UHGV virus genome: UHGV-0200858
Length of the DNA stretch: 36,291 nt
Source: a virus
Reading direction: 5' to 3' (one strand)
The notes below the pieces were generated by a model. It was not told the DNA's origin and did not search any database. It saw nothing but the letters and a program-made list of their open reading frames with translations. The translations under genes and the position numbers were made by a program. Positions 7,146 to 26,787 of the stretch are shown in pieces (position 1 is the first letter of the stretch; every line of letters begins with the position of its first letter).

Positions 7146-7154
7146 ATTACCCCC

Positions 7155-8225: not shown

Positions 8226-8226
8226 G

Positions 8227-8397: not shown

Positions 8398-8417
8398 ATA
8401 TTCACCCCTTTTTATTA

Positions 8418-8696
8418 TTATTTTTGCTTGAGTAAATCAATAACTTGGTCAAATTTAGCATCCATTGCAACCACTTTCTTTTCTATACCGTGAAGGGTTT
8501 GTTCCATGCGATAAACTCTTTCGGCAATTTGATCGTGGTTATTCTGCATCGTTTCAAACTTTTGATTAAACAATGCATCATTGGATTCTAATTTAGACAA
8601 TCTATTTTCTGTGGCTAATTGATTTCGGTGGAGTCTCCAAAGCCCACCACAAATTAAGGCGATAACACCGATACCGCCATATATAATTTCAGTCAT
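8418..8696 (-). CDS. membrane-anchored coiled-coil protein (92 aa), candidate lysis/spanin-like or holin-associated
   Basis: N-terminal TM helix (IIYGGIGVIALICGGLW) followed by coiled coil; located between tail fiber gene and endolysin region. Confidence 0.4.
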   Translation of the reverse strand: MTEIIYGGIGVIALICGGLWRLHRNQLATENRLSKLESNDALFNQKFETMQNNHDQIAERVYRMEQTLHGIEKKVVAMDAKFDQVIDLLKQK

Positions 8697-8798
8697 TACG
8701 CCCCCGATATTTTATAATTTAATGGCAGAATTATTTAGATAAAAATAATCCCGCCTAACTCAAAAGAATTAAGCGGGATTAATTATTAGAATTAAATT

Positions 8799-11700: not shown

Positions 11701-12545
11701 GCGTTCGGATCACATGCACCGTTTGAATGTAGATCCATCTGGCGTACTTGTTTACGTACTTTCAGGAATGAATCAACGTTAATGTTTTCAATTGGTACGG
11801 ATAAGCCATATTTTTCATTTGTTAGGTAGTGGAAAATCTGATCCACGCCGTTAGTGCTAGCCTCAATAGCATTGGTTTCAAGGTTACGGATTTTAAGGCC
11901 GCAAACGTCTACTGCTACCTGGCTATTTGGCTGGAGAATATCAACACCAGCAGCAAGAGATTTGTCATCACGACGTAACACAATACACATGGTCGCAATG
12001 CCGTTACCCTTGAAAGCGTCGGTCCAGTCTGAGCCTAAATGACGTTTTGCCAGCGACAAAGCGGTGTTAGGATTCTTGCCCGTGCGGAACTCGACTTCTA
12101 ATACTTTACGATATTCTTCTTTAATGTTGCCCTTATCGAGAATACCATCACGGATCGTCATGTTCTTACCAACAAGAACATTTTTATTATCAATAAAGAG
12201 TGCTTTGTAATGGTCGATTTCACCCTCGGCTACAGAGAAGATTTGCACTAGCTTATTGTTTTCTTGCTTAGAAACTGCTTTGTAAACACAGTTTGTGCCA
12301 GTGCGGGTAGTACCGAAAACGACTGGTATCACCGCTTTCGGATCGTTTGATGTTCCTAGTGTCACCGCATTATCTGGGCTTTGTACTTTAGGTGTTTTTG
12401 GTGCGCCTACAGTGGAAGCGATCAAAGTCATTGCACCAGCAGCCATACCGATAGCGACTGCGGTCATAACAGAAAATGTTGCAGCAGCAGCCATCCCAGC
12501 AGACGCACCAGCAATAACCGCGCCTACCAATATTTCAAATCCCAT
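8799..12545 (-). CDS. central tail fiber / host specificity protein (J-like), 1248 aa
   Basis: Size, position at distal end of tail module after NlpC/P60 K-like gene, Ala/Gly-rich hydrophobic N-terminus, fibronectin-III-like repeats in the middle (by composition), divergent C-terminal receptor-binding region. Confidence 0.7.
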   Translation of the reverse strand: MGFEILVGAVIAGASAGMAAAATFSVMTAVAIGMAAGAMTLIASTVGAPKTPKVQSPDNAVTLGTSNDPKAVIPVVFGTTRTGTNCVYKAVSKQENNKLVQIFSVAEGEIDHYKALFIDNKNVLVGKNMTIRDGILDKGNIKEEYRKVLEVEFRTGKNPNTALSLAKRHLGSDWTDAFKGNGIATMCIVLRRDDKSLAAGVDILQPNSQVAVDVCGLKIRNLETNAIEASTNGVDQIFHYLTNEKYGLSVPIENINVDSFLKVRKQVRQMDLHSNGACDPNASFKENLTNLMQTFGGVMFESFGRITLKLDAPDIVKHTFNEDNIMMGKVSLKTGGTNGYFNTINAMYQEPSIDYSEQMLRYPADAENDATVRADGRIIAKDVEYRFVKSKDQIDKLASIERNKSRITQVISFMTTDAFTAEVWDVISVTYDELKLNNSLWRITAIDRSIDSGIAGMMTITATEYNSQVYTDLNYAANPDNRPTGLPDSMTVQKPTNFRIKATGETIHGKNVTLTWDAPEDFNRYGFQIDYKVSGSPNWIKLGQTSQQIFNINALAKDRSYDYRVCAFGIIARSDWVELVNQNPEVTYELPTPVIRIKNQGSTPGTFEGNDLIIEWDNQQSLDVVINGETNKFSDLFEAYIIKVTNKAGKSIQYRTRDPESWTYTLDMNQFNGLSRELTVEVSAKGYNNSVSAPARLVAINPQHKPMKGFSARGGFNTAFVSWANDVEHDYAGSIIQYATDNTFSDARAVTTNSVSHTSFDLADGDYYLRAAHYDIFGMDDAVWSEPYFMPMKSTISWDDQDKEALEDLIGLQDRLDETIADAIAQAGANADAKIDAMHKQITTETGQTVQASADTLKSLIATSEQASSTKIDQVKAELKGDITSEVSASATTLKQAIATSEAASASKIDQVRVEMDGKIAGVNQEADVKIDALKGTINSKYNLAVNADGRVAGIHMSATNDPAEPTRIIFTADKIAVAPQDGSEVCPFGIEGNKVYLDNAMIRNAAIGTAQINDAAITTAKIGTAQINGAHIQHAQIGTGHIIDGSIDNAKIGNYIQSYNWNGNDGWYIGKDGTCHFRHANVRGHLVADSGEMNNVTINSSCRILGMLDANQVRGDFVKVVGRSFPHRQPNWPDGAITVRVEDDHPFDRQIVIPAIHHNGSVRRGESSDHWDTCRLIIKKNGGVLYDRTATSGCMYSGVIDMPAGHGAVTMTFEVYCKGVNNYTPSAYISDLTVMVTKKAATGISVS

Positions 12546-13120
12546 TATTCACCCCCGAATCTATAAACTTGTTCATAGTCAATGTCTGAAACAGGAATGG
12601 TCATCCAGATACCATCTTCTTCAACGAGGCCATAACCGGAATAATGAGGAACTACGGAATAATAATTACGGTTTCCTAATTTGTGGGCTGTGACCAGTAA
12701 GTCGCCGTCCTGTAAATCATCAGTGACTAATTTGAAATGTTTCTTTATTGGTTGAAGGATGTTTGAATATCCGCTTAATTCTTTGCAGATTTTCAAGCCT
12801 TCTTCTTTAGTTGAATATTTTTTATAAAGAGAATTATATAGGTCAGTACCAGCGAGAATATCGATGATCTTACATGCAATGAGATTGCAATCATTCTCGC
12901 CTTGAACGAACTCCTGACCTATTAAAGAATTGATGTAATCAGTGATAAGCCTAGTTTTTAGCATGTTGAATACCTCCATGCTGTTATTTACTAGGCTTAG
13001 GGAGAAGGGATTATTTCTTCGATGAATGCCACTTGCTTTCCGATTGCCAGCGACCCGCCCTTGAGAAGAATAGATCGTTCTCGTTTCCAACATAGGATCG
13101 GTGGATACCATCGGAAGCAT
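12545..13120 (-). CDS. tail assembly protein, NlpC/P60-family (lambda gpK-like)
   Basis: QGENDCNLIACKI contains Cys in an NlpC/P60-like context with downstream His; sits between L-like and J-like genes. Track ORF overlaps upstream gene; probable true start at internal Met about 12966. Confidence 0.55.
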   Translation of the reverse strand: MLPMVSTDPMLETRTIYSSQGRVAGNRKASGIHRRNNPFSLSLVNNSMEVFNMLKTRLITDYINSLIGQEFVQGENDCNLIACKIIDILAGTDLYNSLYKKYSTKEEGLKICKELSGYSNILQPIKKHFKLVTDDLQDGDLLVTAHKLGNRNYYSVVPHYSGYGLVEEDGIWMTIPVSDIDYEQVYRFGGE

Positions 13121-13664
13121 GACTACGAGCGTTTTTATCTAGAACTTCCCAGATACTATTAAGCTGAAATTCCGATTCGTTTTTACACTCATCATCTTCA
13201 TGTTCGATGTTAATACCGATGGAATCGACTACCCCACGGAAAACAGGGTAAGTTGTTTCAACCTTGCCCGTGTTGGGGTTAAGGAAAACCATCTCGATTT
13301 TTACATCAGATTTATCGAATTGCTTGTTACGAATGAGAGTTACATACTCTTCACGGACGTTAGAAACAGTTACGTTAATCCCGTTGTTGTTGATCTCCTT
13401 CTCTTCGGTATTCGATGAGATTTGAAGAAAATCACCCGTTGCGAGATACGTAAATCCGTTATAGTCCAAATCGAAATACCCATCTGTAAGCCGTAGAACG
13501 TCCCCTGACGCTGTTATCACTTCGATAATGTGAAACATCGATCCAGTGGAAAAAAGCTGCGGTAGCGTTAATCTAGACACGTTCTGACCTGTCTGGTCGT
13601 TGTAGACCTCGATGAAGTCAAGATTAGTGCATAGTTTGCTGAATGATTCCTGAATAGTTGCCAT
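13011..13664 (-). CDS. minor tail protein (lambda gpL-like position)
   Basis: Position between distal tail gene and K-like gene; 217 aa; C-terminal Cys/His region; call by synteny only. Confidence 0.45.
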   Translation of the reverse strand: MATIQESFSKLCTNLDFIEVYNDQTGQNVSRLTLPQLFSTGSMFHIIEVITASGDVLRLTDGYFDLDYNGFTYLATGDFLQISSNTEEKEINNNGINVTVSNVREEYVTLIRNKQFDKSDVKIEMVFLNPNTGKVETTYPVFRGVVDSIGINIEHEDDECKNESEFQLNSIWEVLDKNARSHASDGIHRSYVGNENDLFFSRAGRWQSESKWHSSKK

Positions 13665-14224
13665 TATACATTCTCCACTAATTCAAATTTCATCTTGCCG
13701 ATTTGGGCGATCTTCCAATCGATATTTTCAGTTTTGAGAACAAATTCACCTTCTACGTTCTGATACTTGATCACCTCACCCGCCAGGACGTTCTGCCGCA
13801 AGTTAGGGAAGAGTTTCATTTCACCACCTGATTTCACGTCTTCGGTGATCGTGTAGATTTTCTTGTGGTTCTCAAACTGGATGATAGTTCCTGCTTTCAG
13901 TGTTCCGGTGAAGTTGGAGAGTCTTACCTTACGCCCACCGCGAGCAGTACCAGTAGCAGACGTAACCATCTGGCGTACATCACCTGTATATTTTGAAAAG
14001 TAAGACAGTGGCACACTAAAAGGACGACCAAAAAGGTGACGTGCTACAAATTCTTTTACTTCGTTAATATCCTGAGCCATGAAATTAGCTGTAAATTCTG
14101 CTTCATAAAAATGAATGCCAGTAAAGCGACGCTGGAACTTACCGGAGATAGATTGCGCCTTGAAGAAAGGTTGTTTTGATTTAAGAGTAAAATCTGTGAT
14201 TTTAATATTCTTGGATTTGAACAT
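13664..14224 (-). CDS. minor/distal tail protein (lambda gpM-like position)
   Basis: First gene after tape measure; start overlaps next gene stop (ATGA-type coupling); synteny-based. Confidence 0.45.
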   Translation of the reverse strand: MFKSKNIKITDFTLKSKQPFFKAQSISGKFQRRFTGIHFYEAEFTANFMAQDINEVKEFVARHLFGRPFSVPLSYFSKYTGDVRQMVTSATGTARGGRKVRLSNFTGTLKAGTIIQFENHKKIYTITEDVKSGGEMKLFPNLRQNVLAGEVIKYQNVEGEFVLKTENIDWKIAQIGKMKFELVENV

Positions 14225-14228
14225 AGAA

Positions 14229-14273
14229 AAGCCCCCATAGTTTTATGATTATTTATGACTATGGGGGCTTTTA
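14229..14273. terminator. hairpin with flanking A/T runs between tape measure and distal tail gene (approx)
   Basis: GCCCCCATAG ... CTATGGGGGC 10 bp stem with long loop, flanked by AAAA and TTTT. Confidence 0.4.
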
Positions 14274-14274
14274 A

Positions 14275-16701
14275 TTACATCTTACGACGCTGTGCGTCTT
14301 CTACCGCCTGAGCAACTAACTTAGCGTGACGTTTGATAGCATCCATAACCATCTTGTCTGAGCTATTAACGTTGCCGTTAATGTTCAAAGGCGCATTAAC
14401 TTCAATCGGCTGAGAGTTACCACCGCCTGATTTTTGAGCAGATAAGAAGTCTTTCAAATCACCGTTAGTACGCTGATCAACTACTCGTTCACCCTTATCA
14501 AGCAACCATGTACCCTCACGAGGGATGTTATCGATACCATCATGAGCCATACCACTAACGTTAGTAGACTTGATGTTTGCGATGTTCCCCATGTTCTGAG
14601 AAACAGCCAATGCAGCAGCAGCGATCTTTTGTCCTGTGGTAACGTTGGTTGGATCGTTCCATGCATCGGTAGCAGCCGTCCACATGTTCACCGTCGCTTG
14701 TCCAATGGAGAATGCCTTATGAGCATTGAAAGCCATCTGCATAGCTTTAGTGTTTTCCTGCCCGAAGAGAGTCATTGCAGCAGCAAAACCGCCATACATA
14801 TCATCGGCTATTGACTGTCGAGCATCAGCGTATTTCTTCTCAATTGCAGCCATTCGTTTTTGATGGTTTTCATTGAGTTTTTCTAATGCAGCCATCCGTT
14901 TAGCCGGATCATTAATACCATCAATCTTGAGTTTATCGGTTTTATAATCTTGTTCAGCGTCCGATTTCTCTTTATCGATTGCATTAAATTTAGCAAACGG
15001 GTTATTCGAGTCCTGATAGTCTAAACCATTGGTCAACTGATTGGTTTTAAAACCATCCATTCCATGCAAAGAATCTTCAATCTGTGAATAACTTTGTTCG
15101 GTATCATTCACACGACGCATATATTCTTCGTAGGAGATAGCCTTACCATCAAGTAACCGTTTATGGCTTTCTAACTCGTTGTCCCTGATTTGTTGTAATT
15201 GTGTTAAAGCATTCAGAGCATCAACAGGATCAGCACCTAAAACCATTTTGTATACGTTTTCAGTATTCTGATCGATTAAGGATTGGCGTTTCGCGGCTGC
15301 GTCTTGCTGCGAGATTAACCCCAGATCTAAAGCAGTGTCCAGATCTTTCAAGCTGGCTTCTAACTGCTTATTCTGAGAAGCAATAGACGCGGCAACCTGC
15401 CCTTGCAATTTAACATCAAGTGCATTCAGTCGCTTGATTGCATCCTCACGTTCTTTCTGTGCTTTCTCTGCGGCTTCCTTAGCTTTTTTAGCTGCCTCTT
15501 CCGCTTTCTTGCGTTTTTCTTCCTCGGCTTTCTTCTCTTCGGCAGACGGACCCAATGAAGCTGGTCTGACTGGTTTATTTGGTAGAGTCAAACTACCGCT
15601 TGATTTGGTTGTCAGATGTTCACCAGCATCGACTACAATCAGAGCACCACTTGAAGTTTTATAAGACCCACCAAAACGTTTCTTAAATCCTTCAACATCA
15701 AAGCCAGCAGTACGAGGATCGACACCAGCACCACGGATCGCGGCCTTTTCCCAATCTGCCAGATTATTCCAACGCTTTTCTTTATTGTACTTGTCAATAA
15801 TCTTTTGAGCGTCTTTATGGTTGGCGTTAAGAATACCACCAGTTGCGGTCTTACCTTCTTTATTCAGTCGGTCTAATGCCCTGAATAGAGAACTCTTTTC
15901 CCAATCAATATTAAACCATTCAAATAACCAGTTTAAGCTATCAACCAAAGGACCAGTAATGGTCATGCCGACACCTTTCAGGTTATTTTCCAGCTTATTG
16001 ATATTTTGAGAAAATTTATCATATTTTTTAGCGTTTTCTTCGGTGACGTTAACAGATTGATTCTGAATAGCGATCATCGCCTCTTGAGCAGTATTATATT
16101 TCTCAAGCTGGCTGGTCATATGGCTTGAATCACTGGCTAAAGATTCCATCATGAACTTGATTTCAGCCATTGATTTTCCGGCTTTCTTCATGTCATAGAA
16201 CACTTGGATCGCCGCTTTCATACCACCTTGCGGATCTGTCATGAAGTGAGCATAGTTTTCTAACTTAAGACCAACCGATTCTAAGTCATCAGCAATACCA
16301 CCACCATTAGCCCACGCATCACCCATTTTATCTAAGGTGTCTTTGTTGATATCGCCAAATTTTTCAACTGTTAGGCCAGTGCCAGAAAATTCCTTTTCTA
16401 GTCTTTGAAGGGATTCAATCGAGAGTCCGGTCGCCTTAGATACTTCTGAATACTGTTTAACGTATTCCGCACCAGCTTTAGCGGCTGCAACCACTGCGGT
16501 CGCAACTAAGCCAATACCACCAGCAGCCAAACCAGCAGAGCCAGCAATACCACGAAGAGATCCAGTCAGACCAGACAAGCCACCACCAAAATCAATATTA
16601 CTTGCCTTTTCAGACAAACTATCGAGAAGGTCAGCGGCTTCATTGGTGCTTCTCCTTAGACCTTTATTATCCCCTTCTATTGTTACTATATGTTTTGTCA
16701 T
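14275..16701 (-). CDS. tail tape measure protein (808 aa)
   Basis: Large protein after tail chaperones; Gly/Ala-rich hydrophobic N-terminal segments, long K/E-rich coiled-coil centre (AEEKKAEEEKRKKAEEAAKKAKEAAEKAQKERE), C-terminal region. Confidence 0.8.
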   Translation of the reverse strand: MTKHIVTIEGDNKGLRRSTNEAADLLDSLSEKASNIDFGGGLSGLTGSLRGIAGSAGLAAGGIGLVATAVVAAAKAGAEYVKQYSEVSKATGLSIESLQRLEKEFSGTGLTVEKFGDINKDTLDKMGDAWANGGGIADDLESVGLKLENYAHFMTDPQGGMKAAIQVFYDMKKAGKSMAEIKFMMESLASDSSHMTSQLEKYNTAQEAMIAIQNQSVNVTEENAKKYDKFSQNINKLENNLKGVGMTITGPLVDSLNWLFEWFNIDWEKSSLFRALDRLNKEGKTATGGILNANHKDAQKIIDKYNKEKRWNNLADWEKAAIRGAGVDPRTAGFDVEGFKKRFGGSYKTSSGALIVVDAGEHLTTKSSGSLTLPNKPVRPASLGPSAEEKKAEEEKRKKAEEAAKKAKEAAEKAQKEREDAIKRLNALDVKLQGQVAASIASQNKQLEASLKDLDTALDLGLISQQDAAAKRQSLIDQNTENVYKMVLGADPVDALNALTQLQQIRDNELESHKRLLDGKAISYEEYMRRVNDTEQSYSQIEDSLHGMDGFKTNQLTNGLDYQDSNNPFAKFNAIDKEKSDAEQDYKTDKLKIDGINDPAKRMAALEKLNENHQKRMAAIEKKYADARQSIADDMYGGFAAAMTLFGQENTKAMQMAFNAHKAFSIGQATVNMWTAATDAWNDPTNVTTGQKIAAAALAVSQNMGNIANIKSTNVSGMAHDGIDNIPREGTWLLDKGERVVDQRTNGDLKDFLSAQKSGGGNSQPIEVNAPLNINGNVNSSDKMVMDAIKRHAKLVAQAVEDAQRRKM

Positions 16702-16712
16702 AAATTACCCCT

Positions 16713-17054
16713 TTAACCGCTTCTGAGTTTCTCAAGCAAAGATGGATCAAACATGTTCAGCATTGCCGCTTTACGTTCTTCTTCTTTCTTGCGTGCAATT
16801 TCTTCCAGTTCTTCTTTAGTTTTAAAGAGTTTTTCTTCTCTAATTAATTGGAATTGGCTAGGCTTGAGTTTGCGTGCAGTTTCGCGTGTCATTCCTTGCG
16901 AAGTCATATACATGGAATATTGCAACATCGCATTCTGCATATCATGAAACGCGGGGCTTTGTGGTTCTAAGTAGGTGTCGAAAATGTATAATTTCCAAAA
17001 CAGAGTGATTGGCATATTATCCATTTCATCTTTACTAAGCCCCGATCTCATCAT
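16713..17054 (-). CDS. tail assembly chaperone (lambda T-like position)
   Basis: Small ORF immediately upstream of tape measure and downstream of acidic G-like chaperone. Confidence 0.5.
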   Translation of the reverse strand: MMRSGLSKDEMDNMPITLFWKLYIFDTYLEPQSPAFHDMQNAMLQYSMYMTSQGMTRETARKLKPSQFQLIREEKLFKTKEELEEIARKKEEERKAAMLNMFDPSLLEKLRSG

Positions 17055-17083
17055 TTGCCGGAAATAGAAATTCAGAAGCGGGT

Positions 17084-17392
17084 TTACTTTACCTCGTTTT
17101 CAATTACTGCCGGATCTTGCATCAATGACGCTTGAGCAACCAAACCGATTAATTCACTTCGAACGTTAGTATACAGTGCCTTAACTTGTTCCATAGATTC
17201 AAATACTGGCTTACCATCTTCATCTTCAATACAACGAAGAATAGAACGTTCATCACGGTCTTCTTTATCGGTATTGAAAACATGTTCATTAAATTCTTTT
17301 ACTGACATAGGGCGAGCATAGAAAGTGAATCCACCGATGGTCAGAGATTCGCGTTTAGGAGAAAGTGCGGCTAACATTTCATTAATATTCAT
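17084..17392 (-). CDS. tail assembly chaperone (lambda G-like), acidic
   Basis: 102 aa acidic protein between major tail tube gene and tape measure. Confidence 0.5.
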   Translation of the reverse strand: MNINEMLAALSPKRESLTIGGFTFYARPMSVKEFNEHVFNTDKEDRDERSILRCIEDEDGKPVFESMEQVKALYTNVRSELIGLVAQASLMQDPAVIENEVK

Positions 17393-17441
17393 TATTGTTT
17401 CCTCTTAAGTTAATTAGATATGTTTATTTAGAATTGGAAAC

Positions 17442-17468
17442 AAAAAAAGCCACCCCGAAGGATGGCTA
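17442..17468 (-). terminator. rho-independent terminator after major tail gene (approx)
   Basis: On minus strand AGCCATCC UUCG GGGUGGCU hairpin with UUCG tetraloop followed by a run of 7 U. Confidence 0.6.
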
Positions 17469-17475
17469 GAGAATA

Positions 17476-17946
17476 TTAGACTTTCTGGAAAACAGCTTGT
17501 TTAACCGGAGCACCATCTACTACAAAGGTGAAGGTACGGCCTACTACAGCATCCTCACCACCAGTCATGGTAGTTTTAGACAGGAAGCCGTTATAAGCGA
17601 TGTGCACACCAGATTTTTTCGTAGCATCGATGTAGTAAGCAATTTTAAGCTGTACGCGCTTACCGTCTTCGGTTGCTTTAATCAGTTTTTCGTGTACTTC
17701 GTTACCCGGCATGTAGTTGATCGAAAGTTCGATATCCGGTACAGACATACGACCAACCAGCTTACGGTTATAAGCACCAGAGAAGTTAGGAACATCGATA
17801 GTAGAACGTTCTACACCAGTTTCCGGGAACGCTGCGCATTCTGGAATTTCCAGATAAGTTTCAGCGTCAAGATCAACGTTAGCTACATCTTCTTGCAGAA
17901 ACAGACCAACGAGGCCACCAGAGAAAATATCAAATTTAGTAGTCAT
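17476..17946 (-). CDS. major tail tube protein (156 aa)
   Basis: Position directly upstream of G/T chaperones and tape measure; strong SD; followed by strong terminator; codon usage typical of a highly expressed structural gene. Confidence 0.6.
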   Translation of the reverse strand: MTTKFDIFSGGLVGLFLQEDVANVDLDAETYLEIPECAAFPETGVERSTIDVPNFSGAYNRKLVGRMSVPDIELSINYMPGNEVHEKLIKATEDGKRVQLKIAYYIDATKKSGVHIAYNGFLSKTTMTGGEDAVVGRTFTFVVDGAPVKQAVFQKV

Positions 17947-18034
17947 TATTCTTTTCCTTCTATTTTTAAAACAATAGGGTACATGCCCGTAATTCTATTT
18001 ATTTAGTTAAATGGGGGTGTTCCCCCCATTTATA

Positions 18035-21000
18035 TCATTTACAGGATTTAATAGCCGCAAGTTCAGCTTTAACAGCTTTCAACTCTTCGTTCATCGCATC
18101 ATACTTAGTCGTTAATTCCTGAAAGGCTTTCACGAAAAGAGCATTGATACTAGAAACAGAAATAGTTTTAATTTCTCCTGGATTTTCGGTATCTCCATCG
18201 CTGCAAACGTGCACAGCTTCCGGCATAACTTTTTCCACATCTTGAGCAATGACACCTAATTCGCGTCCAACCACTGTATCATCAGAAAGTGATTTAACTT
18301 TATCGTAGGAATATACGGTTAAGCTGTTTAATTTATCCAGCGCACCTTCTTCCAATTCTTCCTTGTTGATCTTAAGACGTTCATCAGATCGAATATGCAC
18401 ATCGTTAAAGCTACCGTTACCCGGCGTGTAAAAGAACCCATCGTGATGGAACTCAAATACAGCTTGAGGGTGTCCGTTATCAGGTGAGTTTTCCGCAGAT
18501 CCAACACGAATAATTGCTTGTCCCCAATTGTTAGGGATACGACGCATACCAAAATCGACGGCAGTTGTATACCCTTGATTGGTGATTAAACTTCTTGCTT
18601 TAACAATCGGATAATAACAGTCTTGTCCAACATAGCCATGATCGACGAATATTGGCGCTTCCACTCGCCACTGATTACCCCAATCACCTGGTTGACTAGC
18701 GGTCCAACGTTCACCATGAACATATAATCGAGCGTTATTAACATGAACCATTTCGACGCCTTTTGGACTTAATGCAATATCCCCAGCGTTCGTAAGATTT
18801 ATCGCGGCATTAGTAGCATAGCTATAGAACGCTAATCCATTATCACCACCGCCTTTACCAATATACCAGTTGTTGTTGTCAGCACACGTACCCAACAAAT
18901 ATACAGACGAATCACCACTTTCGGCATTCATGATAATTGCATCAGATCCGCGATTAATTTTAAGTTTACCAAAGAAGGAGTTTTTAATGGTATTATCACC
19001 CAATCGTTCAAATTCTGCGAAAAATCCTTTTGAGTCACGAAGACTTAAAACGTTATTTCGACCTGTATTGCTTGCCCCCCAATGGACGAGTTCCATATAG
19101 TCCATAGATTGACGAGAACCAGCTTTAAAGAAAAGATTGTCCTCAAGACGAGTGCTACCATCAATCCCCAGATGTAAACACCGAGCGGTTTCAGTACCAC
19201 CTAAATATAATCCACCGTCCGCAAAATCATAGCTGAATGGTCTGCGATTATTCCAACTACCAAAAGAATCTTTTAAATCGGTAGTAAGAATATGGAAGCT
19301 AGAACCATCATTGCGTAACATCAAACCATAGTTACCGCCTTTGACAGCCAAACGAGCATTTTCAGACAATGCGACTTCGCTATTCATTACAATTTTCTGG
19401 CCTTTACCACCAGTAATATGTAATTCACCATCTTCAATCAGGTTTATCGAGTTTTGACCGTTATCGTTCCACCAAATAAAATCTTTGGTCTGCGCATCAC
19501 CGAAGCCAAACCAACCATTACGAACATCTGTACCAGTTCGATAATCAAAGAAGTTTAAGTGGCATGATTCGTTTGGACCACGACGAAAATCAATTGCTGA
19601 GTTTCCACCTAAACCGCCATCAATGGTCATTCTACGAATATGCAAACCGGACGATGCCGAAAGCAATAATTGTTGGTTAACATCTTCATAACCAGTTGCA
19701 AGGCGATATGACTGATCATCAACAGTTTCATGCCAGATTGTAGCTGGTGCAGAACTACGGAAGCGACGCAACATTTTCTTAGCATTTGTTTGTTGTTCGT
19801 TCAAATGCTCAATGTCATATTGGCCTTGATGGTTTCCGCCAAAATTTAACGTCCCACGGTTGCTAAAGTTATTAAACGATGAAATGTTAAGAGCATCAAA
19901 AATTTCATCTGCAACAGGTTTTTCACCGCCCAGGTATTCAGGAGTATCCAACAGGTTTAAAGAAACACCACCGGAAGAAACTTGATATTCTGCTAAAACA
20001 AATCCTGTATGTGCACCATAGTAAGCGTAAAGATCGTAATTATCACCATCGGTAGGAATTGCGCAAAAATATTGTTCGTAATACCAAATGCTATAATAAG
20101 CATTGAATACAACACCTTTCGGGCTATTGTTGCCGCAACGGATCACCAGTTCAATAACATTGGCTTGTCCATTCTGTCCGACGTTATAACCGTTACCACC
20201 CACTAAACGGATCTTAGCCGTACGACCGTGTTGTTGTGGCATTGTCAAAGTGCCTAGTTTAAACCAACCGCCCTCGACCCCAAAATTAAGCGTCTTCTGG
20301 AAAAGTCGGTCAATTTCTGCTTTCGAATATGCGCCAATTTCGGCAGGAGTAGGTTTATCACCCTCGTGATACATGCGGTGAGAATATGCCAAATGACCCA
20401 ATTCATCATAGCCGTATGTTCTTACAGTAGCATGTGGATTAGACCCATAAGTGAACTCGAAGCCACGAGCATGATTAACACCGGATGGATGTGGAACATG
20501 CAAGATCATAGCAATATGATCAGCTAGATCATTGGTACGGAATGCACCAAAGTAATCAAGATTACGCGCACTTGGATCATCAAAATAGTTTGCGGTCTTA
20601 GACAGCAAATAACCATCAGTGTAAGTGTTTACGTGTTTTTTGATGTACTTACCGTCACTCGATCCGTCGGCTGCATCAATACGGCTTTCTAAGCGCGCCA
20701 GTTCAGAATCAGTGTAAGACTTGTTATTGTCAACTTTGCTATGAATTGCCGTATTTTTGGCTTCAACATCACGGGTTAATGCTGCGACGTTATCCGCTGC
20801 CTCTTGCTTATTGGCTGCAATCACACCAGTAAGGTTATTGTAAGTGTCGGTTAATTGATTTTCCGCATAAGTTTTATTATCAGCGATAGTGCGATCAGTC
20901 TCGGCCTTAATCAAATCAACTTTGTCATTGATTGCTTTGTCATTGATTGCGATGGTTGCATCAGTACGGGATTTAATATCATCAACTTTTTTATTGATGC

Positions 21001-21463
21001 GGGTGTCCAGTTCCTGAGTTGCTACAGCAGCCGCATTTTTATTAGCGGTGATGGTATCGGATAATTCAGATTTAACACCAGCCAGTTCGGAAGCTGCTTT
21101 ATTTTTATTGGCTTCGATTGTCGCGTCGGTTTCGCGTTTAATTACATCAACTTTATTGTTAATTTCTGCGTGGTTGTTGGCAATAGTAGAATCGGTAGTT
21201 TGTTTAATTTCATCTACTTTAGCGTGAATATTGCGGTCGTTTACTGCAATTGTGCTATCTAATTCTTGTTTGTTAGCATCAACTTTAGATTCTAGTGCCG
21301 CGTGAGTTTCAGGAGAAACAGAGATTTGAACTACTTCATGATCTCGGTCTTTGGTGAAAATAACATGGTCTTTAAGGTTGATTGCTACCTCACCGACCTG
21401 TAATTGTTCCGGCGTTGGTTTTTTGCCAGAAACACTAGTTCGTTTAAATTGGATTGATTGCAT
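18035..21463 (-). CDS. side (L-shaped-type) tail fiber with C-terminal S74-family intramolecular chaperone domain (1142 aa)
   Basis: N-terminal tail-fiber anchor-like motif (KKPTPEQLQVGEVAIN), tandem about 22 aa repeats (xVDxIKxxTDxTIAxN), C-terminal SDERLKINKEE ... LGVIAQDVEKVMPEAV motif characteristic of self-cleaving intramolecular chaperone domains of endosialidases and T5 pb1. Confidence 0.75.
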   Translation of the reverse strand: MQSIQFKRTSVSGKKPTPEQLQVGEVAINLKDHVIFTKDRDHEVVQISVSPETHAALESKVDANKQELDSTIAVNDRNIHAKVDEIKQTTDSTIANNHAEINNKVDVIKRETDATIEANKNKAASELAGVKSELSDTITANKNAAAVATQELDTRINKKVDDIKSRTDATIAINDKAINDKVDLIKAETDRTIADNKTYAENQLTDTYNNLTGVIAANKQEAADNVAALTRDVEAKNTAIHSKVDNNKSYTDSELARLESRIDAADGSSDGKYIKKHVNTYTDGYLLSKTANYFDDPSARNLDYFGAFRTNDLADHIAMILHVPHPSGVNHARGFEFTYGSNPHATVRTYGYDELGHLAYSHRMYHEGDKPTPAEIGAYSKAEIDRLFQKTLNFGVEGGWFKLGTLTMPQQHGRTAKIRLVGGNGYNVGQNGQANVIELVIRCGNNSPKGVVFNAYYSIWYYEQYFCAIPTDGDNYDLYAYYGAHTGFVLAEYQVSSGGVSLNLLDTPEYLGGEKPVADEIFDALNISSFNNFSNRGTLNFGGNHQGQYDIEHLNEQQTNAKKMLRRFRSSAPATIWHETVDDQSYRLATGYEDVNQQLLLSASSGLHIRRMTIDGGLGGNSAIDFRRGPNESCHLNFFDYRTGTDVRNGWFGFGDAQTKDFIWWNDNGQNSINLIEDGELHITGGKGQKIVMNSEVALSENARLAVKGGNYGLMLRNDGSSFHILTTDLKDSFGSWNNRRPFSYDFADGGLYLGGTETARCLHLGIDGSTRLEDNLFFKAGSRQSMDYMELVHWGASNTGRNNVLSLRDSKGFFAEFERLGDNTIKNSFFGKLKINRGSDAIIMNAESGDSSVYLLGTCADNNNWYIGKGGGDNGLAFYSYATNAAINLTNAGDIALSPKGVEMVHVNNARLYVHGERWTASQPGDWGNQWRVEAPIFVDHGYVGQDCYYPIVKARSLITNQGYTTAVDFGMRRIPNNWGQAIIRVGSAENSPDNGHPQAVFEFHHDGFFYTPGNGSFNDVHIRSDERLKINKEELEEGALDKLNSLTVYSYDKVKSLSDDTVVGRELGVIAQDVEKVMPEAVHVCSDGDTENPGEIKTISVSSINALFVKAFQELTTKYDAMNEELKAVKAELAAIKSCK
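20684..21301 (-). repeat. in-frame tandem coding repeats in the tail fiber N-terminal shaft (approx)
   Basis: Protein shows 8 or more consecutive repeats of the pattern N-K-x-x-x-D-x-x-I-x-x-K-V-D-x-I-K-x-x-T-D-x-T-I; corresponding DNA shows repeated GCGATGGT / GTTGATTTG-type units. Confidence 0.6.
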
Positions 21464-21536
21464 CTAATCACCTCACATAAAACAGGAATAAGGGAGGCGT
21501 TAACCTCCCCGCGTCATGTTTTATTTAGCGAAGCAA

Positions 21537-22370
21537 TTAATATTCACCGAAGTCGATCCGGTCATGGATAGAAACGGCTTCAATCTCGGCTGGTGTCGGT
21601 TTTTCTTCTGTGGAATACACTTTCACCCATCCCGAATTACCGTCTTTCTGGACTGTGCGAACTCGTAAACGTGGTGCGCCGGAAGCGGTGCAAGTTAATT
21701 GCCATCCACCATCTTCATTAGGTTGAACGTGAATTAGTGAAGTATCAGCACTAAATGGATTAGATGCGCTCGATCCCTGATAAGTTACGAAACGGTTTCC
21801 GGCTAATGCTTCGCTATCAATCGGACCTGTGAATGGATGTACACCAGCACCCAAACCAAAATCACCTTGACGTAAGATCCGGCCTTCGGTGGCAATACCA
21901 CGGTCGAGAATCCCACCATCAGGATCTAATTTAAATTCGATGGTAGTAACTTTGTTATCGCTACCACGGGTTTTGTGTGATGTGACGTATGCATCAAAAA
22001 TGACGTAGTATCCTGTGTTAGCAGCACTGTAACCAGAGTTCACAACATAGAACATACGGAAGCGTAAAGGAGTTTTATCATTCACCGCTTTCATCAACAT
22101 GTCTTGATGTTCATCATCCAGAACACGGTTTAACGTGAGTGTCGTCGGTTCCAGTTTACGATAACCAGCAAGTTTCCCCGTAGCGTCCTGATCATACTCT
22201 TCTAACGTCTGGATCTCTGTGGATTCGGTGATCGTAGGGAATGCTGCGATGTTCTCGATAGGACTAAATGCAGGATCGAAAAAGTCCGGCTGGTTATCCA
22301 CCATAGTAGACACGGAGACTTCAACATGCGACCCCGTGAAAATGTCTAAGTTATCTTGTGTAATATTCAT
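21537..22370 (-). CDS. virion structural protein (277 aa), fiber- or neck-associated
   Basis: Located between head-completion genes and tail fiber; shares a KPTPAEI(E/G)A motif with the tail fiber; Gly-rich beta-like composition. Confidence 0.4.
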   Translation of the reverse strand: MNITQDNLDIFTGSHVEVSVSTMVDNQPDFFDPAFSPIENIAAFPTITESTEIQTLEEYDQDATGKLAGYRKLEPTTLTLNRVLDDEHQDMLMKAVNDKTPLRFRMFYVVNSGYSAANTGYYVIFDAYVTSHKTRGSDNKVTTIEFKLDPDGGILDRGIATEGRILRQGDFGLGAGVHPFTGPIDSEALAGNRFVTYQGSSASNPFSADTSLIHVQPNEDGGWQLTCTASGAPRLRVRTVQKDGNSGWVKVYSTEEKPTPAEIEAVSIHDRIDFGEY

Positions 22371-22379
22371 TATTACCCC

Positions 22380-22808
22380 TTAAAAACGCGCTAGATAAGA
22401 AAATTTAAGGCTAAGTGTCCCAACGATACCACCATCACTAGAATCATCGTCATAATCGGTATTAGAAGCTACTGGAGTGATATCTGAAATAGAGAAGCCC
22501 AAATCTTTAAAACGTGGATTATCCGGCTGAATCTGGATTATCTGGCAAATACCCTCATGAATTTTGGTTTCATGATTCTGAGAATACAACTGCATTTCGA
22601 TAACGCATTCAGCTTGCATTGCATTACCACCACGGACCCTAGTGTAAGTCTCATTCATGCCAGTAATCCAACACACCACGTCATCACTAAAGCCTTGCTG
22701 AGTTTGTTCTACGTTTAAAGCCAGACCTAGATCTTGTTCGATAATATCCTGTAAAGCACGTTTAATCTTAAGACGTGGCATATTATTAACGGTAGCGAGC
22801 ATGAGCAC
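22380..22808 (-). CDS. head-tail joining / tail completion protein (by position)
   Basis: 142 aa ORF in the head-to-tail junction region; overlaps upstream gene by about 20 nt; synteny only. Confidence 0.35.
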   Translation of the reverse strand: MLMLATVNNMPRLKIKRALQDIIEQDLGLALNVEQTQQGFSDDVVCWITGMNETYTRVRGGNAMQAECVIEMQLYSQNHETKIHEGICQIIQIQPDNPRFKDLGFSISDITPVASNTDYDDDSSDGGIVGTLSLKFSYLARF

Positions 22809-23076
22809 CCCCTGCTAAAGTGATAAAGCAATCACTGGTATTGTCACCATTGCGCTTAACGTATTGAACTTTGAAACGCTGGTTTTCTACAATGACAACA
22901 TCACCTTGCTTTAAATCTCCCTCACGACAGAATAAGAATTCTGTTTCTGTCATTACCCCTTGTTCGTCGGTAGTAGTAATTTCATGGTAAGCACGAATTG
23001 ATTTACCACCTTCCACCACAAAAACAGGAGCACTCTTAAACATTCGATTTAATTGTGATTCTGATAATTTGAACAT
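22786..23076 (-). CDS. head completion / connector protein (by position)
   Basis: 96 aa ORF directly downstream of capsid gene terminator; synteny only. Confidence 0.35.
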   Translation of the reverse strand: MFKLSESQLNRMFKSAPVFVVEGGKSIRAYHEITTTDEQGVMTETEFLFCREGDLKQGDVVIVENQRFKVQYVKRNGDNTSDCFITLAGGAHARYR

Positions 23077-23106
23077 AGTTACCCCCTTTTATGGAGTATT
23101 TACATA

Positions 23107-23133
23107 CAAAAAAGCCCCACCGTTAGGCAGGGC
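23107..23133 (-). terminator. rho-independent terminator downstream of capsid gene (approx)
   Basis: On minus strand GCCCUGCC UAAC GGUGGGGC hairpin (with G-U pairs) followed by UUUUUU. Confidence 0.5.
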
Positions 23134-23226
23134 TAATTATTATTTTGCTTTCGGCGGGCGACCCGCCTTTTTAGCTGTGGCTTTCACCGTAACTACCGGA
23201 ATTTCTTCCGGCAATTCTTCGTTATT

Positions 23227-25230
23227 TCATTCAGCGCCAATCTGAAGAACTTTCAGAGCTTCCGGCTGAGTAACAACATAATCCAGATCTACCCAGATAC
23301 GCGGAACGATAGCAGACTGTGCACGGTAGGTAGTGTCGTCCATATCCAATTCCAGACCGCCCCACTCACCGATAGTGATGCCGGAGAAGTCACCCAGAAC
23401 GATGTGATCTGCCGGAATAACACCAGAAGTAACTACTTCGTAACCAGCCAGTTTGCCGTTTTCGATGATATAACCGGAAACGCCGTTATCTTTCAGGGTA
23501 GATTCCAGTTCGGCAGCAGTTGCACCGCTCATCGCAAACTTGATCGCCTGAGCAGGAACGCCAGCGTCGGTCAGTTTAGCAATTTCTTTCAGGAAATCTT
23601 TGTAAGAGAAAGCAGCTTTCTTCTCAACGCGGCTAGCGTCTACCAGTTGTTTAACCAGACCAGCCGGACCACGAGCGTTATCTTTATCAGACAGAATCAG
23701 TTGTTCCAGTTTGATGCGAACAGCCTGGTTGATGTGATCAGTGATCAGGGTAGCGATACCCGGAACGGTTTTAATGCTCTGACGGCTGATCGGGTTGCCA
23801 CCAGCAAAAGTCTTAGGAGACAGTTTCACGTTTGCAAATTCAGCTTTGCCTTCCGGTGCAGCACCGTTTTCATCAACGAAGCCGAAAGCGTCAACGCTGG
23901 ATTTAGTCATTTTTGGAATAGCGGTCGGAGCAGTCAAGCCACTATAAACAGTCACACCCAGACGACCCAGAACGGATTCCGGCATCAGCATTTCGATGTA
24001 GGATTCAGTCAGCAGTTTTTCGTCGGTGATAGCAGTCAGGTCAGCTTTGGTGTTACCAGCAGCAGCAGCACGCATAGCAGCAGCCGGAACGAATACAGAG
24101 CCACCGCGAGCAGCACGACCACGCTGCATAGTTGCAGTAGCAGCCATTGCGGAAAATTCAGCTTCGTTAGCACCCAGAGCAGCACCATCTACCAGAGAGC
24201 GAATTACGTTGTTCAGGTCAAAAGTTTTTTCCATTTTAGAGTCCTTAATTTGTTCGTTATTACGTTGAGCATTGGTAATGTTATTTAGTGCCTTAGTGCG
24301 GAATGCTTCCGGCGTCATATCTTTAACTGCCAATGCGCGTTTTAATTCTTCGTCGTCAATATTTAGTTCGCGTGCAATTTCGCGAATTTCTAATTCGTCT
24401 TCTTCGGAACGTTCAGCCACTTCAATTTTTTCTTCTTCAACCGGAGCAGCTTCACGTTCTTCTGTCATTTCTTCTTCTTCCCGAACAGTTCCACGATCAT
24501 CATCAGAACTTTCAGAATGTTCAGCGTCTTTTCCGTCTTCGAGATTTTCATTTTCTTCATTCTCTTCAACTTGGCGCTCTTGAGTTTCTTCTACTTCCGG
24601 TTCTTTATTTTCTTCTACCGGAGTTTCTTCAACCTGAGCGACTTCTTTTTCTTCGTCTTTAACTTGTTCGATTTGTTCTTTAGTCATATCGCGTTTAGCC
24701 TCCAAATTAACTGTGATAGTATTTAGAGAGCGATTTAGACCGACAGAATCGTCTGCGGGCACAGACACCCATGAAATCTCATGAGGAATCCACTTAGTAA
24801 CAATCAATTGTCCTTTAGCGTAATCGATGTGATATTCTTTAATGTCATAACCGACAGAAATTTTTTCCATCGTACCTTCAATGACTTTATTACGAATATC
24901 ATTAGCCAAAGTACCATGCTTAGAGAATTTAACAGTAGCACGGCCTACTTTATCCGCATCGATTCGAGCGTTACAGACAACACCAATGTGATTATCGAAA
25001 TTATGATTGAACAGCAACGGAGCGTTATTATTCAGGCGAGACAGATCAACCGCTTCCGGTGTATGTACCAGAATTTCATCTAATACCACCATCTCTTGAT
25101 TTTGCTCATCCCAGAATTGGCGCTGGTAAGGCTGTTCACTGGAGAAAGCAATTTCAAATTCGTATTGATCGTTATGCCCTTCGTTAATAACTCCACCGTA
25201 ACCGTTAAGATCGCGGCGAAATTTAAGCAT
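23227..25230 (-). CDS. prohead protease - scaffold - major capsid protein fusion (HK97-fold), 667 aa
   Basis: N-terminal about 170 aa resembles HK97-type prohead protease (LLFNHNFDNHIGVV ... ISWVSVPADDSVG); central highly acidic E-rich segment typical of scaffold/delta domain; C-terminal about 330 aa has the composition of an HK97-fold capsid protein. Confidence 0.75.
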   Translation of the reverse strand: MLKFRRDLNGYGGVINEGHNDQYEFEIAFSSEQPYQRQFWDEQNQEMVVLDEILVHTPEAVDLSRLNNNAPLLFNHNFDNHIGVVCNARIDADKVGRATVKFSKHGTLANDIRNKVIEGTMEKISVGYDIKEYHIDYAKGQLIVTKWIPHEISWVSVPADDSVGLNRSLNTITVNLEAKRDMTKEQIEQVKDEEKEVAQVEETPVEENKEPEVEETQERQVEENEENENLEDGKDAEHSESSDDDRGTVREEEEMTEEREAAPVEEEKIEVAERSEEDELEIREIARELNIDDEELKRALAVKDMTPEAFRTKALNNITNAQRNNEQIKDSKMEKTFDLNNVIRSLVDGAALGANEAEFSAMAATATMQRGRAARGGSVFVPAAAMRAAAAGNTKADLTAITDEKLLTESYIEMLMPESVLGRLGVTVYSGLTAPTAIPKMTKSSVDAFGFVDENGAAPEGKAEFANVKLSPKTFAGGNPISRQSIKTVPGIATLITDHINQAVRIKLEQLILSDKDNARGPAGLVKQLVDASRVEKKAAFSYKDFLKEIAKLTDAGVPAQAIKFAMSGATAAELESTLKDNGVSGYIIENGKLAGYEVVTSGVIPADHIVLGDFSGITIGEWGGLELDMDDTTYRAQSAIVPRIWVDLDYVVTQPEALKVLQIGAE

Positions 25231-25275
25231 TTAATCACCTTTAATTAATTGGGGGCATTGCGCCCCCGTTGGTTA

Positions 25276-26787
25276 TTAGGGATCGGCTGGGGAATTTTTT
25301 TCTTCACCCTCGCCATTAACGATAATATTTAGTGCGCTCTTTTCGGCTTGAATCTCTGAGAATACTTTTTCAGGATCATCACCACGTTCAAGAATAACAG
25401 CAGTACGTGATTTAAGACCATTTTGAATTAAAGCAATCTCGGCGTTTACGTCTTTAATAGGATCGACGGATTCAAAACGCGGACGAATAATAGTAGTGTT
25501 ATCGATAATATGAGGAATTGCAGTAATACGAATCGGAACAATACCACGCGCGGAATAATGGCGTAGATATGCTTCGAAAATTGGCAATACCACTGTTTCA
25601 ATTAATTTGTTTTGCAGTGCTTTAATGCGGTTACGCTGAGTTAATTCACCAAAACGTGCGGCTGAGTAGTTGATCTGTGAACAATCTCCTGTTAAGCCCT
25701 GTTTGAACACGCCTAAGCCCATTGATACGCTAGTGAACATCGCATCATTGAAGCTGTTAAAGTCATCGCCATTTTGCGATGATTGAATGCTCTTGATTGT
25801 TGCCCCTTCCGGCAATTCCTGAATAGTACCAGGTGCAAAGTCCTGTACTACTTCCGGCGCTTGATATTGTTCATCCTCTTCACCAGTATCAAAATCGTCA
25901 CCAGAATCTTTAGGACGTTCGATAAAGCCCATAGAACTAGCCGCAATACGTTTCTGGACGATCGCGGTTTCGCGGAACGCTTCTTGATGCGCAATATCCT
26001 TAATCACTGGCAGGAAGTCAGTCACACCACGTAAACTTTCCGCGCACAGTGGCTGGTAGTAGTGGCACACCTGAGAAGCATCTACGCGATAATTTTCGCC
26101 AGTGTAGGTCTGAGTCAGTAGATTGATTTTTCTAAACCAGTATGCTACAGGGCGCATTGTGTCTACGTCATACTCAATCCCCTGATAGATCGCACGTTCT
26201 TTGCTTATTTCACGACTAAGCGACCAGTCGCACCTATCAGCAGACAGAATAGAAACTTGTAACTCATTGTTCTCTTTGGTTAAAACGATGAAGCATTCTC
26301 CACCCTGAACACGTTCAGATTCTGCCATTGCCAGCATTTCACGGAAGTTAAAGCGACCGTTGCGAGAGAAGCGTTTAGCACTCTGCGCCCACTTCCAGAA
26401 AGCATTCTCGATCTGCTTATTCAGTGCGGTGTCAAGTTTGCCATTTGATTTAACGATTGATGGTTTCGGATCAAGCCCCGTACCAACAACTTGGTCAACG
26501 ATATACTGCTTGTATCGCTTACCTACAGCATTGTTTATAGCCAGAGTACGACCCTGATCATAAAGGCGCTTACCGTTCGATTTGAGAGCCTTATTGAAGG
26601 TTCCTGTAATGGTGTCTTGTTGAAGCTGTCCATCAATGCGATCACCGACTAAGCCCAAAGAACGCTTAGACAAATCTTTCTGGAATTTTTCTACTTGTTT
26701 GTCGATAAAGATTTTTTGTTGTTGCTGGCGGTGATTAGTTTTAACTGGAGTTTCTACCGCCTTTTTGCGTCGAAAAAGATTAAACAT
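25276..26787 (-). CDS. portal protein (503 aa)
   Basis: Size and position between terminase and capsid genes; basic N-terminus, acidic stretch (DDFDTGEEDEQ); synteny-based. Confidence 0.7.
   Translation of the reverse strand: MFNLFRRKKAVETPVKTNHRQQQQKIFIDKQVEKFQKDLSKRSLGLVGDRIDGQLQQDTITGTFNKALKSNGKRLYDQGRTLAINNAVGKRYKQYIVDQVVGTGLDPKPSIVKSNGKLDTALNKQIENAFWKWAQSAKRFSRNGRFNFREMLAMAESERVQGGECFIVLTKENNELQVSILSADRCDWSLSREISKERAIYQGIEYDVDTMRPVAYWFRKINLLTQTYTGENYRVDASQVCHYYQPLCAESLRGVTDFLPVIKDIAHQEAFRETAIVQKRIAASSMGFIERPKDSGDDFDTGEEDEQYQAPEVVQDFAPGTIQELPEGATIKSIQSSQNGDDFNSFNDAMFTSVSMGLGVFKQGLTGDCSQINYSAARFGELTQRNRIKALQNKLIETVVLPIFEAYLRHYSARGIVPIRITAIPHIIDNTTIIRPRFESVDPIKDVNAEIALIQNGLKSRTAVILERGDDPEKVFSEIQAEKSALNIIVNGEGEEKNSPADP

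Follow-up and report, generated by a model that had tools for sequence, protein, structure and literature searches.

We examined a 36,291-nucleotide stretch of viral DNA (UHGV virus genome UHGV-0200858; hereafter the window, numbered 5′ to 3′ on one strand), focusing on the open reading frame (ORF) at 18035–21463 on the minus strand, which an original prediction made from sequence alone had read as a side tail fibre with a repetitive N-terminal shaft and a self-cleaving C-terminal chaperone. This fibre gene lies next to a gene for a tail tube paralogue, here termed the adaptor, and the two adjacent proteins carry sequences resembling the two halves of the joint between gp36 and gp37 in the long tail fibres of T4. 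The fibre ORF starts with ATG, 4 nt downstream of a Shine-Dalgarno-like AGGTGA, and encodes 1142 amino acids (aa). The features of the two genes are as follows.

18035–21463, minus strand: intact fibre gene, from the ORF list and a match to PHROG 1699, ‘long tail fiber protein distal subunit’ (E = 5e-115).
21314–21463, minus strand: fibre aa 1–50 (MQSIQFKRT...VQISVSPE), the ‘socket’ domain, a homologue of the N-terminal part of T-even gp37 that binds gp36.
20663–21313, minus strand: fibre aa 51–267, predicted hendecad coiled-coil rod, from autocorrelation, core residues and AlphaFold2.
18389–20617, minus strand: fibre aa 283–1025, gp37-like body and tip, from gp37 identity and Pfam and PDB matches; the mature distal part if the chain is cleaved.
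18038–18388, minus strand: fibre aa 1026–1142, predicted C-terminal intramolecular chaperone (Peptidase_S74), from PF13884 and PDB 6f45_A.
21537–22370, minus strand: adaptor, a 277-aa tail tube paralogue (PHROG 158, major tail protein) and proposed anchor, with a tube fold at aa 13–161 and a C-terminal stub.
21540–21560, minus strand: the ‘plug’, RIDFGEY at the very C-terminus of the adaptor, aligned with the C-terminus of gp36.

Comparison of the fibre with gp37 of the RB49-like Krischvirus phages MIZ4 and KFS-EC (920–922 aa) gave two separate matches. Fibre aa 1–51 are 43% identical to aa 4–54 of these proteins, and aa 283–1135 are 76–77% identical to them, with a nucleotide identity to Krischvirus gp37 of 81–84% over 18212–20600. 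The fibre is therefore a gp37 carrying an insert of about 230 aa, which contains the rod, between its N-domain and its body. Both parts that characterize gp37 were found, namely an N-domain of the gp36-binding type and a homologous shaft and tip. The N-terminus of T4 gp37 could be aligned with the socket by eye, AlphaFold2 modelled the socket as a small beta domain with three short strands at aa 26–46, and the N-terminus of PHROG 1699 matches the same N-domain in the rod protein of a Proteus prophage described below. Within the body, Pfam identified Gp34_trimer at aa 646–745 and, weakly, gp37_trimer at aa 843–893, and the PDB sequence matches were to pieces of T4 gp34, Mu S and the T7 fibre. 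These comparisons indicate a chimeric fibre, whose body and tip came from RB49-like T-even phages through exchange. A match of fibre aa 22–56 (window 21314–21463) to designed Symfoil beta-trefoils, including a fragment that forms homotrimeric trefoils (AINLKDHVIFTKDRDHEVVQISVSPE), was weak, repeat-inflated and probably due to chance; it could hint that three socket domains form one three-fold beta unit.

The gene preceding the fibre on the coding strand encodes the adaptor. Its N-domain (aa 13–161; AlphaFold2 predicted local distance difference test (pLDDT) ∼80–90) is a paralogue of the 156-aa tail tube protein encoded on the other side of the fibre gene, and its predicted model has a canonical tail tube fold. 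The top Foldseek match was the lambda gpV tube (8k36_A, E = 9e-8), and further matches were to the tube proteins of YDC107, 80alpha, SPP1 and GTA, with a probability of 1.0 for gpV, 80alpha, SPP1 and GTA. The stub that follows is 30% identical over 83 aa to fibre aa 300–380, and the final 28 residues of the adaptor (KVYSTEEKPTPAEIEAVSIHDRIDFGEY) can be aligned over their whole length with the final 28 of gp36 from Krischvirus (EIYHEGHKPTPDEVGAVPLNAVIDFGTF). Thus, where gp36 ends in ..VIDFGTF in Krischvirus and in ..DSVQDFGYY in T4, the adaptor ends in ..IDFGEY. In T4, gp37 is bound through its N-terminal region by the trimer of gp36 (PMC3004832). Since the adaptor ends like gp36 and the fibre starts like gp37, the adjacent genes appear to encode both ends of the T4 joint.

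The two ends recur together among relatives. The plug was kept in 20 of 20 aligned adaptor homologues down to 40% identity, in the form ..(I/V)D(F/L)Gxx, with DLG in the two most distant and the Asp and Gly invariant; the two most distant adaptors also carry ∼200 aa of gp36-like repeats (GDTMTG...) ahead of the plug. Among related loci, which for these counts were taken from IMG/VR, the plug terminates every one of 55 adaptors (277–583 aa) and a gp37-type socket opens all 52 of the next genes (46 by a strict pattern and six by eye), such that an end of the form hydrophobic-D-(F/L/A)-G-x-x is paired with a partner start of the form IQFKR...GE(L/V)AIN..D..(I/L)(F/Y)TKD. Variants of plug and socket co-vary, DFG occurring with FKR, DLGYL with (M/V)RR and DAG with HYR. 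Sequence searches of the PDB with the fibre N-domain and the adaptor returned no match for the adaptor and no solved structure of the gp36–gp37 joint. A scan of GTDB genomes, one per species, with the adaptor profile gave no confirmed match, and it is because of this one-genome-per-species sampling that the scan missed these prophages.

The gene order adaptor, fibre, tube protein, chaperones and tape measure recurs in E. coli, Salmonella, Proteus, metagenomes and the record of ‘Escherichia phage DCP80’. In a Proteus mirabilis prophage (L016), the adaptor (..IDFGEF) is followed by a 198-aa protein and then by a 675-aa gp37-like fibre with its own socket. The 198-aa protein consists of a socket, a coiled coil and an ..IMDFGTF plug. 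By its sequence, this Proteus rod reads as a stand-alone extension segment that bears a socket at one terminus and a plug at the opposite one, whereas E. coli and Salmonella carry the rod as part of the fibre itself. Comparison of related prophages thus points to a portable joint, as they place different fibres, a gp38 adhesin cassette or a free rod between the same plug and socket. When 1.84 billion representatives were searched by profile (E ≤ 0.001), 276 clusters that share the tube-like N-terminal domain were obtained. Among the best 150 of these 276, the top ∼17 are plug-ended adaptors and more than 100 are proteins of 600–1600 aa in which a tube-like N-domain of ∼250 aa is fused to a whole fibre; within the same 150, 115 proteins reach 600 aa or more, and 37 of these have an S74-like motif close to the C-terminus. 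Ten clusters were sampled, and the named ones among them, from Serratia, Rouxiella, Kluyvera, Leclercia and Enterobacter, bore only the names ‘tail fiber protein’, ‘pyocin knob domain-containing protein’ or ‘hypothetical protein’. The DCP80 record itself (L011; GenBank PQ671644.1) is classified as a T4-like Gaprivervirus of 141 kb, and its positions 1–18560 hold a lambda-type terminase, a portal, a 699-aa tube-fibre adaptor (..VIDFGLE), a fibre, a tube protein and the tape measure of this siphovirus group, so the record may be a chimeric assembly or a misclassification.

At its other end, the fibre matches the Peptidase_S74 family. Pfam PF13884 aligned with aa 1026–1085 over its whole length (model positions 1–58 of 58; E = 2e-14; 54 bits against a curated cutoff of 22). 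The domain opens with SDERLK (aa 1026–1031), in which Ser1026 (codon 18386–18388) and Lys1031 (codon 18371–18373), five residues apart, form a candidate catalytic dyad. The best solved relative is the C-terminus of gp37 of Salmonella phage S16 (6f45_A, E = 1e-6), whose SSDRRIK aligned with RSDERLK in the fibre; MyRF was among the weaker PDB sequence matches. A Ser and a Lys at S+5 are the dyad that defines this mechanism, S911/K916 in endoNF and S587/K592 in MyRF, and both residues are essential (PMC8326128). The same spacing was found in K1F gp17 (endoNF; SNGERK) and in T5 pb1 (SDARLK), both read directly because a MAFFT alignment of the S74 region shifted the dyad by a few columns. A cut between Arg1025 and Ser1026 would free a 117-aa chaperone and leave a mature fibre of 1025 aa. 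The self-cleaving chaperone of the original prediction therefore gains sequence support from the full Pfam model and the S+5 dyad, and the absence of a Ser/Lys dyad, which had been named as the result that would count against it, was checked and not found, since Ser1026 and Lys1031 share the spacing of endoNF, MyRF, K1F gp17 and T5 pb1.

Between socket and body lies the region for which the original prediction had proposed eight or more repeats of about 22 aa, starting at the N-terminus and forming a repetitive shaft. BLOSUM62 autocorrelation over aa 56–265 gave its top peak at a lag of 22 (z = 8.9), with further peaks at 33, 44 and 55 (z ∼5) and at 11 (z = 2.9), and eight 22-mers in aa 61–236 had a mean pairwise identity of 19%, against 9 ± 1% in shuffles. 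The repeats and the shaft are thus real, although the repeats begin at about aa 61 rather than at the N-terminus, where aa 1–50 form a distinct domain, and the 22-residue unit is a pair of 11-residue hendecads, an A-type VDxIKxxTDxT alternating with a B-type IAxNxxxINxK. About 17 hendecads run from aa 50 to 236 with no insertion or deletion, and the helix continues to about aa 267. In rows of 11, positions 1 and 8 are hydrophobic and position 4 alternates between N and I, the core positions a, d and h being V/I/L, N/I and L/I/T, respectively. Hydrophobic spectral power was 93 at a period of 3.67 (11/3) and 7 at a period of 3.5, so the pattern is one of hendecads and not heptads. The 217 residues of aa 51–267 contain one Pro and three Gly, and AlphaFold2, given a ten-sequence alignment, predicted a single unbroken helix over all of them (pLDDT 90–98). 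With an 11-residue core periodicity in a long, proline-poor helix, the shaft can be sharpened to a predicted alpha-helical hendecad coiled coil, and a beta-structured repeat shaft was rejected on account of the hendecad pattern and the confident helix prediction. An apolipoprotein match in Pfam was rejected as evidence of homology, as it scored 21 bits against a cutoff of 90 and reflects only the amphipathic 22-mer periodicity. An alpha helix rises 0.15 nm per residue, so a helix of 217 residues would make a rod of ∼32 nm; that this rod is a trimeric coiled coil is suggested by the trimeric state of S74- and gp37-type fibres.

At the DNA level, Tandem Repeats Finder detected only one repeat in the gene, 2.1 copies of a 15-bp unit at 20920–20950, which encodes INDKAINDK within the rod. 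The rod repeats are old, and only the protein sequence still shows them. The ratio of nonsynonymous to synonymous substitution (dN/dS) in the rod is 0.14–0.15, indicating purifying selection on it. A full-length match was present in 26 complete E. coli genomes, and in every one of them the stretch aligned with the N-terminal 904 bp is again exactly 904 bp long; rod length is likewise unchanged in 11 of 12 close IMG/VR relatives (37 of 38 when the two sets are taken together). Across the IMG/VR relatives, the rod, measured from SVSPE to YIKK, is 225 aa in 11 loci, 202 aa in nine, 230 aa in nine and 170 aa in one. This last locus (L027) carries an exact 55-aa deletion of five hendecads with the junction ...AEINN|KVDDIK..., and its crossover lies where two repeat units share 10 identical nt (AAAGTTGATG). 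The sequence of the junction indicates that this deletion was repeat-mediated and that short identities of the same kind as the 15-bp repeat were responsible. The rod is 97 aa in a more distant relative (L057), is shorter and a separate protein in the Proteus prophage, and is lacking as a helical rod from the DCP80 and L012 lineages. As regards the suggestion that repeat number tunes fibre length, in-register changes in length do exist (L027 and the sister lineages with rods of 202, 230 and 97 aa), but they are rare, with length fixed in 37 of 38 close relatives.

By gene order across the whole window, the fibre gene is housed in the late operon of a siphovirus-type prophage. On the coding strand, a lambda-type large terminase, a portal and a protease-capsid fusion are followed by an FII-like head-tail protein (96 aa), a 142-aa protein, the 277-aa adaptor and the fibre, and then by the 156-aa tail tube protein, G/T-type tail assembly chaperones, an 808-aa tape measure, a distal tail protein, tip proteins and a 1248-aa J-like central fibre. 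The 156-aa tube gene, which the genes for the chaperones and tape measure follow directly, borders the fibre cassette on its other side. Features around the two genes are listed below.

17476–17946, minus strand: canonical 156-aa tail tube protein (PHROG 158, E = 2e-19; weak Pfam matches to lambda TTP).
8799–12545, minus strand: central tail fibre of 1248 aa, ending in 117 aa that match the receptor-binding domain of lambda J (Ig_GpJ_C, E = 3e-34).
21491–21510, minus strand: terminator-like hairpin between the adaptor and fibre genes (consensus scan only).
17448–17467, minus strand: terminator-like hairpin after the 156-aa tube gene (consensus scan only).
18008–18032, strand not assigned: palindromic GC-rich hairpin just past the fibre stop codon, within the variable 3′ cassette (consensus scan only).

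Given the Ig_GpJ_C match, a J-type primary receptor-binding protein probably stands beside the accessory fibre. Genes for a sheath, gp34, gp35 or gp36 were not recognized in the window, which by its tube, G/T chaperones, tape measure and J-like fibre belongs to a siphovirus-type prophage and not to a contractile-tailed phage with a gp34–gp35–gp36–gp37 fibre. An NCBIfam scan of the fibre and its neighbours returned no match. Of 5426 complete E. coli genomes, 58 contain prophages that are 91–94% identical to the 12-kb stretch at 14000–26000, whose sole nucleotide match in the phage genome collection lies inside the fibre gene. The hairpins might attenuate transcription through the fibre cassette.

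Together, these observations suggest that the protein probably forms the distal subunit of an accessory fibre for receptor binding, made in two parts and carried by a temperate E. coli siphovirus that also has a lambda-J-type central fibre, a reading in which we include self-cleavage, the rod and plug-socket docking. Three chains would trimerize under the guidance of the S74 chaperone (aa 1026–1142), and after folding the Ser1026/Lys1031 dyad would cut the chain before Ser1026 and free the chaperone. From tip to base, the mature fibre would consist of the gp37-type body and tip (aa 283–1025), the rod of ∼217 residues (∼32 nm), serving as a rigid spacer, and the 50-residue N-domain. The N-terminal socket would dock onto the ...IDFGEY plug of the adaptor, whose tube-fold N-terminal half would sit as a ring in the tail, plausibly, by analogy with T5, at the distal end of the tube. 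We estimate the tail at ∼120 nm from the 808-aa tape measure and the fibre at ∼80 nm; a distal ring is favoured because a fibre of this length mounted at the neck would miss the tip. As to novelty, we lean only slightly towards an undescribed way of mounting fibres in enterobacterial temperate siphoviruses, in which a duplicated tube protein with a fibre stub and a C-terminal ..DFGxx would act as a portable gp36-like connector for any module with a gp37-type N-domain, so that distal fibres, gp38 cassettes and coiled-coil rods could be chained.

Several points weigh against this reading. Cleavage of the fibre is a prediction from its motif. The plug-socket contact rests on homology to the T4 junction, for which no atomic structure was found, and the co-variation of plug and socket is confounded with phylogeny, in that shared ancestry could produce the same pattern. 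The C-terminal half of the adaptor was modelled at low confidence as a monomer, and six tube subunits would have to be matched in stoichiometry to trimeric fibres. The adaptor ring could be distal, at the neck or scattered through the tube. Lastly, the window is without the gp38 adhesin that goes with the closest fibres, those of MIZ4 and prophage L002, which leaves the receptor-binding element uncertain.

The position of the ring bears on one alternative, that of a neck or whisker fibre, in which plug and socket are kept but the ring is head-proximal and the fibre would probably serve early low-affinity contact or sensing. The adaptor and fibre genes do follow directly on the head-tail joining genes (the FII-like 96-aa and the 142-aa proteins) and precede the canonical tube gene, and lactococcal NPS proteins combine a collar domain, a trimeric coiled coil of 253 aa, comparable in length to the rod here, and binding modules (PMC6669499). 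Gene order is, however, a weak guide to position, the top fold matches of the adaptor are tube proteins and not terminators or collar proteins, the T5 tube paralogue used for fibre mounting sits at the distal end, and by our estimates a fibre at the neck would not reach the part of the tail where the J-type fibre acts. We therefore consider a neck location unlikely.

Alternatively, the protein could be a conventional side fibre of the lambda Stf or T5 pb1 kind whose own N-domain binds the tip or a collar, the 277-aa neighbour being a coincidental second, decorated tube protein. Such attachments are known, as lambda Stf attaches via a collar of its own N-terminal domains (PMC12617516) and T5 pb1 via ∼50 N-terminal residues to a collar protein (PMC10038345), and tube proteins with C-terminal decoration domains, such as lambda gpV, are common. 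Yet the fibre N-domain is of the gp37 type, the adaptor end is exactly gp36-like and in distant adaptors is preceded by gp36-like repeats, the pairing of plug and socket held in 52 of 52 loci checked, and Proteus repeats both at a second junction, from rod to fibre. In addition, a collar gene was not recognized in the window, the fibre gene lies upstream of the tube gene and a tfa-like gene is absent from the window, all of which makes this alternative highly improbable. We consider it also highly improbable that the prophage is cryptic and the gene a remnant in decay, a gp37 cassette that lost gp38 and makes no working fibre. MIZ4 and L002 do have a gp38 gene where the window has only an 88-bp gap between the fibre and tube genes, and relatives L006, L007 and L023 carry insertion sequence (IS) elements in or next to the fibre gene. 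Against this, the ORF here is intact with a good ribosome-binding site, the gene is under selection (dN/dS against relatives of 0.06–0.28), the same gp38-less form was seen again in L001, L004, L019, L025 and L028, and gp37 of this type also occurs without gp38 in KFS-EC, a lytic phage that has been sequenced.

The two-part fibre is closest to Krischvirus gp37 and its joint with gp36, with which it shares the N-domain (43% identity) and the body, tip and S74 domain (76% aa and 81–84% nucleotide identity). The partner ends in ..IDFG(T/E)(F/Y) in both systems, and variants with and without gp38 exist in both. Here, unlike in Krischvirus, the phage is a temperate siphovirus, the gene lies between two tube genes, the fibre carries the coiled-coil-containing insert of ∼230 aa, and the partner is a tube-fold protein and not gp36, gp35 or gp34. 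In T5, a duplicated tube protein, p140, forms a ring between the tube and the distal tail protein at which the L-shaped fibres are mounted via a collar, and the authors of that work noted that other siphoviruses must anchor their fibres differently (PMC10038345). T5 pb1 is an accessory side fibre with a C-terminal self-cleaving chaperone, as the fibre here is predicted to be, and both phages have a tube paralogue at the known or proposed fibre mount. In T5, however, a separate Ig-like collar, p132, surrounds p140, whereas here the tube paralogue itself bears the stub and plug; no sequence similarity was detected between the T5 anchor and that of the window.

The S74 domains of endosialidases, K5 lyase, GA-1 gp12 and MyRF share with the fibre the whole Pfam model, the Ser-Lys pair at S+5 and a helical C-terminal tail, but the passenger here is a gp37-type fibre tip and not a tailspike enzyme, and its cleavage is predicted. 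Lambda Stf, which forms a 12-copy collar of its own N-domain and is evolutionarily linked to T-even gp37 (PMC12617516), likewise serves as the accessory fibre in a temperate siphovirus of E. coli with a J central fibre. Its gene differs in lying after J with a separate Tfa, whereas the gene here lies upstream of the tube gene and encodes a putative internal S74 chaperone and a gp37-type socket. Long trimeric alpha-helical coiled coils also serve as accessory-fibre stalks in T4 fibritin and in lactococcal NPS whiskers, where the 253-aa coiled coil measures ∼33–36 nm (PMC6669499), and the rod would resemble these if it is trimeric as proposed. The collar domain of NPS is BppU-like, and homology between NPS and the window fibre was not detected.

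The fibre itself is thus an ordinary, correctly read tail fibre of known families, since a gp37-type body, an S74 chaperone and a coiled coil are each well known. We found no description in the literature of a tube-paralogue anchor with a gp36-type connector and a portable coiled-coil module, and the arrangement appears to be undescribed. If a short C-terminal peptide and a 50-residue N-domain suffice to join modules across myoviruses and siphoviruses, this would explain how a gp37 cassette with 81–84% identity can pass between T-even phages, which are lytic, and prophages of E. coli. The arrangement would add a third siphovirus side-fibre mount to the collars of lambda Stf and of T5 (p132/p140). 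For those who engineer phages, it would provide a connector that occurs in nature and can be interchanged, together with a rigid spacer of adjustable length, with which host range could be redirected.

The fibre is collinear across the prophage relatives over its first 480 residues and variable in its 3′ cassette, with similarity common to relatives restarting below ∼18006. The S74 end is followed by no further gene (the window, L001 and L004), by a bona fide T2/S16-type gp38 adhesin (L002, 5280–6062; Pfam GP38, E = 4e-72) or by three small paralogous ORFs (L003 and L005–L007). In L003, at 5004–5910, the three are tandem ORFs, each ∼100 aa long, that contain the motif FDIPNGW as well as stretches rich in Gly, and they gave no match in Pfam or PHROGs. 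The insertions in or beside the fibre gene are IS3-, IS4- and IS-like (L006, 6936–8164; L007, 5996–7107; L023, ∼9890–11050), and the fibre locus is a frequent target of decay and rearrangement in E. coli relatives.

Elsewhere in the window, the 667-aa ORF at 23227–25230 (minus strand) joins a prohead serine protease (Peptidase_S78, aa 40–162) to an HK97-type capsid domain (aa 409–663) through an acidic, Glu-rich linker. Past the tail genes, at 1274–2968 (plus strand), 3042–4226 (minus strand) and 4381–6440 (plus strand), are a large serine recombinase, two proteins with CapR homology domains and a UvsW-like helicase (UvsW_N, E = 8e-36), and an M15 peptidase endolysin is encoded at 6792–7145.

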